Below are positions 33,108-36,120 of a stretch of DNA of 38,968 nt, piece after piece. The notes beneath the pieces are model-generated. The model saw only the letters and a program-made list of their open reading frames with translations. It made no database searches and had not been told where the DNA came from. Where the stretch lies: positions 1 through 38,968 of the forward strand of contig JAHZHV010000234.1 of NCBI GenBank assembly GCA_019420085.1. The letters are read 5' to 3'. Numbering within the stretch: position 1 is the first letter of the stretch; every line of letters starts with the position of its first letter. The translations under genes were made by a program, and so were the position numbers. This stretch comes from Christensenella sp. (GTDB lineage Bacteria; Bacillota; Clostridia; Christensenellales; Maliibacteriaceae).

Positions 33108-33142
33108 ATAAAAAAACAGTGTGGAAATCCACACTGTTTTTG
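33108..33142. terminator. bidirectional rho-independent terminator after the GGGtGRT gene
   Basis: AAAAAA, then ACAGTGTGGA-aa-TCCACACTGT, then TTTT. Confidence 0.8.
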
Positions 33143-33155
33143 ATCAAAATAGAGG

Positions 33156-34163
33156 TTACTTCTGCGCTTCTTCGACCGCAACAGCAACCGCAACGGATGC
33201 ACCGACCATGGGGTTGTTGCCCATGCCGATCAGACCCATCATTTCTACATGCGCGGGAACGGAAGAAGAGCCGGCGAACTGTGCATCACCATGCATACGA
33301 CCCATGGTATCCGTCATGCCATAGCTGGCAGGACCGGCTGCCATGTTGTCCGGATGCAGGGTACGACCCGTGCCGCCGCCGGAAGCAACGGAGAAATACT
33401 TCTTGCCGTTGTCATAGCACCATTTCTTGTAAGTGCCCGCAACAGGATGCTGGAAGCGCGTGGGGTTGGTGGAGTTACCGGTAATGGAAACGTCAACCTT
33501 CTCAAAGCGCATAATCGCTACGCCTTCGGAAACGTCGTCTGCACCATAGCAGCGAACCTGTGCATTAGGACCATCGGAATACGCCTTTTCTTCCACGATA
33601 TTCAGCGTACCGGTCGCATAATCATACTTGGTCTCTACAAACGTAAAGCCATTGATACGGCTGATGATCATTGCCGCATCTTTGCCAAGACCATTCAGGA
33701 TAACGCGAAGCGGCTGCTTGCGAACCTTATTTGCAGTCTTTGCAATGCCGATTGCACCTTCTGCAGCGGCAAAAGACTCATGACCTGCCAGGAAGCAGAA
33801 GCATTCCGTCTGCTCACGAAGCAGCATTGCGGCAAGATTTCCGTGACCCAAACCAACCTGACGCTGATCTGCAACGGAACCCGGGATGCAGAATGCCTGC
33901 AGGCCGATACCAATCGCAGCAGCGGCATCCGCAGCATTTTTGCAGCCCTTCTTCAGCGCAACAGCTGCGCCAAGGGTATACGCCCAGCAGGCGTTCTCAA
34001 AAGCAATGGGCTGAATGCCGCGCACAATCGCCGCAACATCAATACCCTTTTCTTTGCAGATTTTATCCGCATCCTCCAAAGAAGCGATGCCATATTCGGC
34101 CATGCAGGCTTCAATCTGCTTGATTCTGCGTTCATATCCTTCAAACTGTACCATGTTTTTCAC
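33156..34163 (-). CDS. GGGtGRT-family protein (function unknown)
   Basis: 335 aa carrying the family-defining ASGGGTGRTLHPDN motif. It has no TM or signal sequence. Confidence 0.8.
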   Translation of the reverse strand: MKNMVQFEGYERRIKQIEACMAEYGIASLEDADKICKEKGIDVAAIVRGIQPIAFENACWAYTLGAAVALKKGCKNAADAAAAIGIGLQAFCIPGSVADQRQVGLGHGNLAAMLLREQTECFCFLAGHESFAAAEGAIGIAKTANKVRKQPLRVILNGLGKDAAMIISRINGFTFVETKYDYATGTLNIVEEKAYSDGPNAQVRCYGADDVSEGVAIMRFEKVDVSITGNSTNPTRFQHPVAGTYKKWCYDNGKKYFSVASGGGTGRTLHPDNMAAGPASYGMTDTMGRMHGDAQFAGSSSVPAHVEMMGLIGMGNNPMVGASVAVAVAVEEAQK

Positions 34164-34175
34164 CTCTGCTGCGGA

Positions 34176-34868
34176 TTACTTTTTGCGGGGGTCGATGTAG
34201 GAGACAGCCTCGGCATAACGGCCATACGTGCCAATGTTCGCCTCATAAGCCTCTTTGGGATCCATACCCTTCTTGATGGCATCCATCATCTTGCCAAGAT
34301 GCACGAACTTATAACCGATCACTTCGCCGTCCTTGTCCAGCGCCATTTCAAGCACATAGCCTTCCGCCATTTCAAGATAACGGACGCCCTTTTCCTTCGT
34401 GCCATACATGGTACCGACCTGGCTGCGCAGACCCTTTCCAAGATCCTCCAAACCCGCGCCGATGGGCAGACCGTTTTCGGAGAAAGCCGTCTGCGTGCGG
34501 CCATAGACAATCTGCAGGAACAGCTCGCGCATAGCGGTGTTGATTGCATCGCAGACAAGGTCCGTATTCAACGCTTCCAGAATGGTTTTGCCCGTCAGCA
34601 CCTCGGCAGCCATTGCAGCAGAGTGCGTCATACCGGAGCAGCCAAGCGTTTCAACCAACGCTTCCTGAATCACGCCTTCCTTGACGTTGAGCGTCAGCTT
34701 GCAAGCGCCCTGCTGCGGTGCACACCAGCCAACACCGTGCGTCAAACCGGAAATGTCCTTAATCTCCTTGGCATGAACCCATGCGCCTTCTTCAGGAATG
34801 GGCGCCGGACCGTGATGGGGTCCTCTTTTTACACACACCATCTCGGCCACTTCTTTGGAATACTGCAT
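34176..34868 (-). CDS. NifU/IscU-N-like Fe-S scaffold-fold protein with a C-terminal extension
   Basis: Has IscU-like Cys-bearing segments (GWCAPQQGAC, ETLGCSGMTHSAAMA, LVCDAI). The start ATG 34868 follows AAGGAGGAAG. It lies 12 nt upstream of the GGGtGRT gene. Confidence 0.7.
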   Translation of the reverse strand: MQYSKEVAEMVCVKRGPHHGPAPIPEEGAWVHAKEIKDISGLTHGVGWCAPQQGACKLTLNVKEGVIQEALVETLGCSGMTHSAAMAAEVLTGKTILEALNTDLVCDAINTAMRELFLQIVYGRTQTAFSENGLPIGAGLEDLGKGLRSQVGTMYGTKEKGVRYLEMAEGYVLEMALDKDGEVIGYKFVHLGKMMDAIKKGMDPKEAYEANIGTYGRYAEAVSYIDPRKK

Positions 34869-34937
34869 GTGTCTTCCTCCTTGCATGAAGTCAAATTGCG
34901 TTCAAATAAGCCGCGTCATGTTTTCGCCGCTCTTTAG

Positions 34938-34975
34938 ATTATAGCACAGTTTGTCCTGCCGCGGTGCGCTTTTGA
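34938..34975 (-). promoter_or_regulatory. candidate extended -10 promoter of the NifU-like/GGGtGRT pair
   Basis: On the minus strand, TGcTATAAT (TATAAT = 34943-34938). The -35 is weak. Confidence 0.4.
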
Positions 34976-35010
34976 CATACTTTTGCCATATAAAACCGCG
35001 TTTTTTTGGT

Positions 35011-36120
35011 TTACACCTGAACAGGCAGTACCAGATACAAAAACTGTGCATCATCTGCAGGCTTCATCACACATGCGCCGACAGATGTCGTCATCTGCAG
35101 TACAGCTTCTTCGCACTCCAGTGCACGAAGCGTCTCTGACAAATAGCGAATATTAAATGCCATATCCAGTTCCTGCCCCTGCATGATACAGGAAACACGC
35201 TCGCGCACATTGCCTGCCTGAGAACGGGACGTCACAATTACAGCATCCGGTTCGAAATGCAGCATAACCAAATTTACCCTGTCATCCTGCGCAATCAGTT
35301 CCGCACGGGACACCGCTGCACGCAATGCTTCCACATCCACACGCGCCGTCGTTGTTGCATCGCGCGGAATAATTTGCTCATACCGGATAAAATCGCCTTC
35401 CAAAAGGCGCGTCATAACACGCGTTTCTCCCTTTTGAAGCATAAAGTTTTTTCCCTGTACATGCACAAGTACTTTTTCATCAGTATCACCGAGAATGCGC
35501 ATAATTTCAAGCAGCGCCCGTCCCGGCACAACACAGCGGCGCGCTTGGCACGGCGTCTGCAGTGTTACGGTGCGCATGGCGAATTTAAAACCATCCAGTG
35601 CAACCAGATTCATCTGTTGATCCTGCAATTCAATCAACTCACCGGTAAAGACAGGACGTGTATTATCCTGCGCAACGGCAAATACCGTTTGCCGAATGAT
35701 TGTCTTAAACTCTTTTTCTGAAATTTCTACGGCATTTTCATCAATGGATTCCGTCGCTTCGGGAAATTCAGAAGCATCAAGCGCCGTTAATGTCGTACGG
35801 GAATCCCGGCAGACAATTGTTACGGTATAGCTGCCCCCGTTTGCTTCTTCAATCGTAATGCATACATCATCTGCAGGAAGTCTGCGTACAACTTCCGAAA
35901 ACAGTTTTCCCGGCATTACGCAGGAAAATGCTTCCTCAAAATTTGCTGTAATACTGCTCTTAATAGAAAGTTTCAAATCAGTGCAGAATAATTCCAGGCG
36001 TCCGGCATCTCCTTTAAGACGAATGCCTTCAATCAGAGGAATCGATGTGCGGGTCGGCATTGCTTTGGTTACGATATTGATTGCCTCAAGAAGTTCACTC
36101 TGATTACAGATAAATTGCAT
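35011..36120 (-). CDS. dnaN: DNA polymerase III beta sliding clamp
   Basis: 369 aa. Begins MQFICNQSELLEAINIVTKA.P.R..IP and ends with the C-terminal LVLPVQV. Confidence 0.97.
   Translation of the reverse strand: MQFICNQSELLEAINIVTKAMPTRTSIPLIEGIRLKGDAGRLELFCTDLKLSIKSSITANFEEAFSCVMPGKLFSEVVRRLPADDVCITIEEANGGSYTVTIVCRDSRTTLTALDASEFPEATESIDENAVEISEKEFKTIIRQTVFAVAQDNTRPVFTGELIELQDQQMNLVALDGFKFAMRTVTLQTPCQARRCVVPGRALLEIMRILGDTDEKVLVHVQGKNFMLQKGETRVMTRLLEGDFIRYEQIIPRDATTTARVDVEALRAAVSRAELIAQDDRVNLVMLHFEPDAVIVTSRSQAGNVRERVSCIMQGQELDMAFNIRYLSETLRALECEEAVLQMTTSVGACVMKPADDAQFLYLVLPVQV

Follow-up and report, generated by a model that had tools for sequence, protein, structure and literature searches.

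A NifU-like and GGGtGRT gene pair of anaerobic bacteria is a candidate for the enolase step missing in many gut and rumen bacteria

The window analysed here, a stretch of 38,968 nucleotides (nt) from Christensenella sp. (assembly GCA_019420085.1, contig JAHZHV010000234.1), carries on its minus strand two adjacent genes, of which gene 1 (34176..34868, ATG 34868) encodes a divergent IscU/NifU_N-like protein of 230 amino acids (aa) and gene 2 (33156..34154, ATG 34154) encodes a GGGtGRT protein of 332 aa belonging to PF14057. Judged from sequence, the pair is an ordinary orthologue of a catalogued family without a characterised function. The best explanation for the properties of this family is that the two proteins are subunits of one abundant iron-dependent enzyme and not an iron-sulfur (Fe-S) assembly scaffold, and the pair is a testable candidate for the enolase step that is missing in many gut and rumen bacteria. 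It is suggested, with a probability of roughly 40%, that the pair is an oxygen-labile Fe-S 2-phosphoglycerate dehydratase, a non-homologous counterpart of enolase in which one subunit, of IscU fold, would hold the cluster and the other, of a new fold, would be catalytic.

Enolase is regarded as a universal core glycolytic enzyme, and the puzzle addressed here is posed by bacteria of the rumen and gut that lack it and yet evidently ferment sugars. The missing enolase is an acknowledged gap in the glycolysis of anaerobes (PMC2914790, PMC7523725, PMC11187502). Prevotella brevis GA33, in which enolase is missing from both the genome and the proteome, still ferments glucose, and in its proteome the products of the orthologous pair T433DRAFT_01350/01351 were found at 104-152 spectra and 79-100% coverage, with triosephosphate isomerase at 47 spectra (PMC10542786). 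For Prevotella ruminicola 23, the pathway table lists enolase PRU_1102 as present in the genome and as NA in all proteome columns, with the other glycolytic enzymes detected (PMC10542786, supplementary file 2). In a glucose-signalling screen of Bacteroides thetaiotaomicron, transposon insertions in BT0173-4, the orthologous pair of this species, and in pfkA were both recovered; the insertions in BT0173-4 had a modest two-fold effect and growth was normal (bioRxiv 10.64898/2026.04.10.717545). If the pair does act at the enolase step, no growth defect would be expected from these insertions because enolase is also present.

The order to which the window belongs was sampled with 41 genomes from 38 genera, in which enolase was scored by Enolase_C. 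This domain is missing in 21/41 genomes, many of them 95-100% complete, and such loss lies far above the ~2% of the phylum. All 21 enolase-less genomes carry PF14057, all five genomes without PF14057 have enolase, and none lacks both (Fisher p = 0.02). Among the high-quality genomes of the sample, 17/35 are without Enolase_C and 35/35 have iPGM; in the full sample iPGM_N is found in 40/41 genomes, every enolase-less one included, and pyruvate kinase in 14/21 enolase-less and 15/20 enolase-positive genomes. Given that iPGM and pyruvate kinase are retained, 2-phosphoglycerate is still made and phosphoenolpyruvate (PEP) is still consumed. The association extends to the phylum, for which a sample of 301 genomes has the pair in 6/13 enolase-less and 15/288 enolase-positive members (odds ratio 15.6, p = 7e-5); both enolase-less genomes that are 100% complete carry it, and the enolase-less carriers come from at least five families. 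Counted by species, enolase is missing in 22/50 carriers (44%) as against 7/280 non-carriers (2.5%; p = 7e-15), with the loss concentrated in Clostridia and enolase mostly kept in the other phyla. Enolase pseudogenes as a pattern among carriers were considered and rejected, as the stops that appeared to lie inside the gene were natural C-terminal stops in 5/6 cases. Separately, the enolase of one relative (G308:C3:201737-203151, L100) is interrupted in frame by TAG at a conserved position (MAH*AGYT), for which recoding, a sequencing error or decay to a pseudogene could each account, and a fluoride riboswitch (41.3 bits) lies immediately 5' of this enolase gene.

The surroundings of the pair also include genes of lower glycolysis. 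A gene for iPGM, pyruvate kinase or enolase lies within 4 kb in 5/80 of the related loci, for which a rough estimate gives ~1 expected by chance, and one of these loci (L071) has the tandem order eno, NifU-like gene, GGGtGRT gene. A divergent subfamily of the GGGtGRT protein, ~52-56% identical to the canonical protein, is encoded in an operon (L082:2997-7606 and L086:1581-7589) consisting of apgM, a NifU-like gene (222 aa), the GGGtGRT gene, a gene for a membrane protein of 317-326 aa and a His_Phos_1 gene, in which apgM encodes an archaeal-type cofactor-independent phosphoglycerate mutase (NF003104, 517 bits). This paralogue operon adjoins helix-turn-helix regulators and a transposase, and one genome of 3.6 Mb holds two identical copies of it together with the canonical pair.

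The NifU-like subunit matches PF01592 (NifU_N) only marginally, at 23.1 bits for a cut-off of 22, and lies far under the cut-offs of the curated scaffold models (26 vs 187.9 for TIGR03419, 21.7 vs 192.4 for TIGR01999 and 20.7 vs 92.5 for SufU), while the NifU-like partner of the divergent paralogue misses even the Pfam NifU_N cut-off (18.5 bits). The IscU-like cysteine segments described in the initial annotation are present (GWCAPQQGAC and LGCSGMTHSAAMA), and so is its C-terminal extension, which was put at about 100 aa and measures ~110 aa; the extension is conserved and matches no family. Invariant residues in 75 orthologues include C49, C56, C77, C106 and H44, all of which are retained in the 51%-identical paralogue. 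IscU sequences of the PDB match gene 1 at E 1e-3, and C77 (within GCSG) and C106 align to Cys63 and Cys106 of IscU. Around the third scaffold cysteine VCD replaces the HCS of IscU, and the first scaffold cysteine (in CGD) aligns to Q/G, with the cysteines of GWC and GAC close by. Neither an equivalent of the IscU Asp nor the LPPVK chaperone-binding motif was found in the alignment and sequence of gene 1. A Foldseek search with a low-confidence model of the N-terminal half returned IscU/ISCU chains (E 7.9e-4 to 1e-2, TMt 0.41-0.54; best match 1wfz, E 7.9e-4, TMt 0.49), and with this model an IscU alpha+beta fold is assigned to the N-terminal half.

The GGGtGRT subunit is an unambiguous member of its family, as gene 2 aligns to the whole PF14057 model (positions 1-327 of 327) at 656.9 bits (E 6e-198, cut-off 27). 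The SGGGTGRT motif pointed out by the initial annotation occupies residues 258-265 and is invariant in an alignment of 64 GGGtGRT sequences that includes the divergent subfamily. In the same alignment five histidines (H104, H125, H267, H288 and H302) and six basic residues (R98, R145, K158, R166, R264 and R286) are invariant and several acidic residues and Ser/Thr-rich loops are kept, and once the divergent subfamily is counted there is no invariant cysteine. Over the 71 closest orthologues, which come from several phyla, 155/332 residues are invariant. The absence of a recognisable catalytic domain, also claimed initially, holds: besides PF14057 and NifU_N no other Pfam or NCBIfam family was found in the two proteins, sequence and profile searches of the PDB returned no GGGtGRT relative, and Foldseek against the PDB gave no match for the gene 2 model with E below 1e-3. 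The AlphaFold2 model of gene 2 has a confident core, with a predicted local distance difference test (pLDDT) of 81.8 and a predicted template modelling score (pTM) of 0.83. The top Foldseek matches of its central alpha/beta domain are Trypanosoma brucei PFK chains (E 7.8e-3), and with the PFK and NAD-kinase 'GGDG' Rossmann-like type it has in common a glycine-rich loop after a beta-strand; given a TM-score of 0.24 and 14% identity over ~147 columns, a PFK-like fold was rejected, as this is a generic Rossmann-like similarity that is no evidence of membership. A resemblance to the GGGTG[ST]G loop of tubulin/FtsZ was likewise rejected, the fold search giving it no support. Residues 260-299, the most conserved stretch and the one that contains GGGTGRT, are modelled as disordered, as is the invariant segment 121-170 of gene 1 in a read-through model of both proteins. 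From these models it may be that the conserved disordered stretches of both proteins become ordered only in the complex or around a cofactor or substrate.

The two genes form a fixed pair. Homologues were scanned with one genome per species, giving at least 589 relatives, and the best 80 loci were used for neighbourhood counts. In 80/80 loci a NifU-like gene lies directly 5' of the GGGtGRT gene on the same strand, with a gap of 7-97 nt, as the initial annotation had anticipated in speaking of a fixed pairing, and the divergent paralogue is also paired with a NifU-like gene. Clustering of the flanking open reading frames (ORFs) revealed no conserved third neighbour, be it a cysteine desulfurase, a chaperone or another gene, over the 80 loci, the commonest neighbour being present in 6. 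These loci span Clostridia, Bacteroidaceae, Akkermansia/Verrucomicrobiales, Elusimicrobia, Planctomycetes, Desulfoarculaceae, Polyangiaceae, Spirochaetes, Victivallis and Alphaproteobacteria. The pairs BT0173-BT0174 (B. thetaiotaomicron) and T433DRAFT_01350-01351 (P. brevis) and F502_05012 (Clostridium pasteurianum) have the same two-gene layout, lengths, motifs and four partner cysteines, and no assigned function for any of them was found in the searchable literature. Compared to the known PF14057 pairs, the sole peculiarity of the window locus is its adjacency to dnaN, from which high gene dosage and expression had been predicted. This prediction is not sustained: dnaN lies within 4 kb of the pair in 0/80 other loci, which makes the location near the origin an accident of this locus.

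Both proteins are ~75-85% identical over Clostridia, Bacteroidota, Verrucomicrobiota, Elusimicrobia, Planctomycetes, Desulfobacterota and Spirochaetes. For each there are >8000 clusters at 90% identity, with ~85% identity to the query among the matches listed, and an entry from Methanobacteriaceae is among the listed homologues. Clustering at 50% identity leaves full-length GGGtGRT proteins as essentially one cluster and one divergent subfamily (P0272, 52% identity), the remaining representatives being fragments, frameshifted sequences and assembly chimeras. Natural fusion proteins were also rejected, since the over-long homologues (P0001, P0241, P0121, P0253, P0270 and P0321) are mis-assemblies or chimeras; over-long homologues from metagenomes have internal duplications or foreign N-termini, typical of the mis-assembly of a conserved, high-coverage gene common to many strains. 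Carriers are 21/301 genomes (7%) of the phylum sample, and this patchy occurrence together with ~80% identity across phyla indicates very strong constraint and much horizontal transfer. Carriage on plasmids was rejected, as the 10 PLSDB matches are chromosome-sized or mislabelled and none is mobilisable. Three marine Vibrio (NZ_CP046066.1, NZ_CP046163.1 and NZ_CP045356.1) have a GGGtGRT gene of 69% identity on a 1.85-Mb replicon; given that Vibrio is facultatively anaerobic, the family is not strictly confined to obligate anaerobes.

Expression of the pair follows iron supply. In B. thetaiotaomicron BT0173-74 is down 11-12.8-fold in iron deficiency (PMC10434189), in which a gene group including eno is listed as up 2.0-7.7-fold with a weak group p of 0.144. 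In this drop BT0173-74 behaves like a protein that consumes iron and unlike an assembly system. In C. pasteurianum the GGGtGRT protein is up with iron supply (PMC5395762), and in gut anaerobes the proteins of the pair rank among those with high expression (PMC11204068, PMC7035244). Codon usage of both genes in the window (effective number of codons 39 vs a median of 45.8, the 10th percentile for the long ORFs of the genome) is more biased than that of ~90%; a principal component analysis of codon usage was dropped, as its axes had no clear tie to expression. Of the two functions initially put forward for the pair, an Fe-S-dependent enzyme or a maturation factor, the former of these, as a two-subunit enzyme, is the most plausible from sequence comparison, given four invariant cysteines in the partner and none in the GGGtGRT protein, which is instead rich in invariant His, Arg and Lys. 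The maturation factor is not supported, in view of a separate NifU, repression in iron limitation and the lack of a conserved desulfurase or third gene. Profile and fold searches gave no clear homology to a known enzyme family, an outcome that the initial annotation had named as refuting.

As an Fe-S 2-phosphoglycerate dehydratase the pair could operate as follows. The IscU-fold subunit would hold a permanent Fe-S cluster on its four invariant cysteines, at the interface with the GGGtGRT protein, whose Rossmann-like core and Gly-, Ser- and His-rich loops would form a pocket for a small anionic substrate bearing both phosphate and carboxylate. Invariant Arg, Lys and His residues and the glycine-rich loop would hold the phosphate and the carboxylate of 2-phosphoglycerate, the cluster iron would activate the C3 hydroxyl and a base would take the C2 proton, with PEP as the product. 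In many anaerobes the pair would run alongside the Mg-enolase as an iron-replete isozyme, and would substitute for it after enolase loss. An oxygen-labile and iron-costly enzyme of this kind would fit the confinement to anaerobes and the repression in iron limitation.

There are precedents for this chemistry in enzymes of other families. In the Fe-S dehydratases IlvD/Edd, aconitase, class I fumarase and L-serine dehydratase, a cluster iron acts as Lewis acid for the beta-hydroxyl of a 2-substituted carboxylate; these enzymes are oxygen-labile, and iron-regulated isozyme pairs such as FumA/FumC exist. They serve as the mechanistic precedent. No homology of the pair to IlvD/Edd, aconitase, FumA or SdaA was found by Pfam, NCBIfam, PDB profile or Foldseek. 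A cluster iron accessible to the substrate would likewise be provided in the pair, as suggested by four invariant cysteines in the partner and none on the GGGtGRT protein; the difference is that in the known dehydratases the cluster ligands lie in the catalytic chain, whereas the pair would use a separate IscU-fold subunit. Enolase itself (EC 4.2.1.11, PF00113/PF03952) is a Mg-dependent TIM-barrel made of a single polypeptide. Neither protein of the pair has a Pfam enolase match, and enolase is not among the Foldseek matches. The likeness would lie in the proposed reaction and metabolic position, in a partly complementary phyletic pattern and in similarly high abundance and conservation; the pair, in contrast, would be two-subunit, iron-dependent and probably oxygen-sensitive, and any likeness would be functional only.

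Several observations weigh against an enolase-like dehydratase. The activity, the cluster and the complex, and with them the substrate and product, are all proposed from comparison, and a read-through 'fusion' of the two proteins modelled with AlphaFold2 (same frame, TAA as Gly, with 22 in-frame loci as a paired alignment; pLDDT 64.5, pTM 0.60) has no confident interface. Extracts of B. proteoclasticus B316, which is without eno, had very low enolase activity in an assay coupled by pyruvate kinase and LDH for which the exclusion of air is not stated (PMC2914790). Enolase is kept in 28/50 carriers and in B. thetaiotaomicron, so that the pair is no simple replacement, and, as most carriers outside Clostridia keep enolase, the pair needs a role beside enolase too. 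In the order sample the pair is nearly ubiquitous (36/41 genomes), hence the association reaches just p = 0.02, and none of the association statistics takes account of shared ancestry; furthermore, the 50 carrier genomes are metagenome-assembled genomes without known completeness. Seven enolase-less genomes of the phylum sample are without the pair at 85-97% completeness, for which assembly gaps could be responsible. Searches of the window and of 32 loci gave no fluoride riboswitch, and none of the 10 present in the 41 relatives, 36 of them carriers, adjoins the pair. The assembly of the window's own genome, at 82% completeness, shows no trace of enolase; of three congeners, two have it, and the congener gene (L092, L093) lies just past the region that matches the end of one contig of the window genome (C156, 2187 nt). 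Because the site of eno in the congeners falls at the end of this contig, the window genome is not scoreable for enolase; its apparent lack may be an assembly gap and is not usable as evidence.

It is possible, though doubtful, that the pair is a two-subunit Fe-S enzyme catalysing some other reaction on a phosphorylated C3 or related intermediate, such as a 2-phosphoglycerate or 3-phosphoglycerate lyase, an oxidoreductase or a ferredoxin-linked step, with enolase made dispensable indirectly. Whatever supports an abundant iron-dependent enzyme supports one of this kind equally; the glycolytic contexts and the pfkA-like phenotype indicate central carbon metabolism and leave the reaction unfixed, and coexistence with enolase in most phyla is explained more easily. 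Nevertheless, the universal presence of iPGM in enolase-less carriers indicates 2-phosphoglycerate as the metabolite to be consumed, the retention of pyruvate kinase indicates PEP as the product, and the conserved neighbours suggest no alternative orphan reaction. These same neighbours bear on an improbable reading, the maturation factor of the initial annotation, in which the pair is a module for Fe-S assembly, repair, carriage or iron/sulfur storage, with an IscU-like scaffold and the GGGtGRT protein as accessory, as no desulfurase or chaperone is conserved nearby. The IscU-type fold and cysteines of the partner, its database name 'iron-sulfur cluster assembly scaffold protein', and an abundance and iron-dependent expression that would suit a store of iron or Fe-S clusters argue for such a module.

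The partner shares with the IscU/NifU scaffolds the fold of its N-terminal half and two aligned cysteines, but differs from them as follows: it scores 21-26 bits against curated cut-offs of 188-192, it has four invariant cysteines in place of three Cys and Asp/His, the CGD context and LPPVK are missing, it has no desulfurase partner, and it carries an extra C-terminal domain of 110 aa. A canonical clostridial NifU is encoded elsewhere in the window genome (C62:4073-4435, 207 bits, cut-off 187.9), and in 37/41 relatives, pair carriers and non-carriers alike. The pair is also repressed in iron limitation, under which assembly systems are usually induced, only 7% of the phylum genomes carry it, and the link to enolase loss would be left unexplained by a scaffold or store. 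That link could instead reflect the ecology and ancestry of host-associated strict anaerobes if the pair were a non-catalytic sensor or stress protein responding to oxygen, nitric oxide, iron or redox state, which is the least probable of the explanations. Co-regulation in B. thetaiotaomicron with hcp and further iron proteins, a patchy distribution apparently shaped by horizontal transfer among gut anaerobes, and association statistics that ignore phylogeny are consistent with this. An abundance on the scale of glycolytic enzymes, 155/332 invariant residues of which many are polar or charged as in active sites, the operon of the paralogue with apgM, and enolase-less carriers from at least five families of the phylum sample are not. 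An Fe-S enzyme of two subunits remains the preferred reading, with the dehydration of 2-phosphoglycerate as its tentative reaction.

Within the window both genes lie on the minus strand between positions 33156 and 34975, as first annotated, and are flanked by dnaN (stop at 35011) and a sugar operon, in the same orientation as one another. The start of gene 1 is assigned to ATG 34868, and not to ATG 34886, because the ribosome-binding site GGAGG (34876..34880, minus strand) lies 7 nt 5' of the former and is overlapped by the latter, and because homologues begin MQYS. Gene 2 begins at ATG 34154 (MVQFEGYERR), and not at GTG 34163, because GAGGTG precedes this ATG and the GTG falls within the ribosome-binding site. 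With these corrected starts the intergenic spacer is 21 nt and not the 12 nt initially given. The extended -10 promoter that had been attributed to the pair is present as TGcTATAAT (34946-34938, minus strand, read from the sequence; TATAAT at 34943-34938) and would give a leader of ~60 nt. No convincing -35 element accompanies it, hence a promoter consensus scan left it unlisted, and an Rfam search of the leader matched no family, the fluoride riboswitch included. The strong terminator described for the pair was likewise recovered (33111..33140, minus strand): stem CAGTGTGG, loop ATTT, stem CCACACTG and a T-run, with a hairpin of -20.5 kcal/mol (z = -5.82) that 0/200 shuffles equal. From its sequence this predicted terminator can be bidirectional. 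Only a weak AAAAC-GCG-GTTTT hairpin lies 3' of the dnaN stop (34990-35010, minus strand), and some transcription may run on from dnaN into the pair, besides that from the promoter of the pair.

An antisense ORF of 562 aa (33249..34937, plus strand) spans both genes. It has zero Pfam matches and was rejected as a gene. An equivalent shadow ORF occurs in 34/80 related loci, and this frame most probably arises because the sense strand is so extremely conserved and codon-biased.

The value of these results lies in the family, to which the window adds one more ordinary member. The pair is among the most conserved and abundant protein families of gut anaerobes that are still without a function, and even with another reaction than the one suggested here, the enzyme reading would correct the name 'iron-sulfur cluster assembly scaffold protein' that databases give to the NifU-like partner. 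If true, the dehydratase would explain glycolysis without enolase in Butyrivibrio, Pseudobutyrivibrio, Prevotella brevis and some half of the window's order. Should the pair perform or bypass the enolase step, it would fill a gap in how the metabolism of major gut and rumen taxa is modelled, introduce an enzyme class and a use of the IscU fold that are both new, and tie central carbon flux to iron supply and oxygen exposure.

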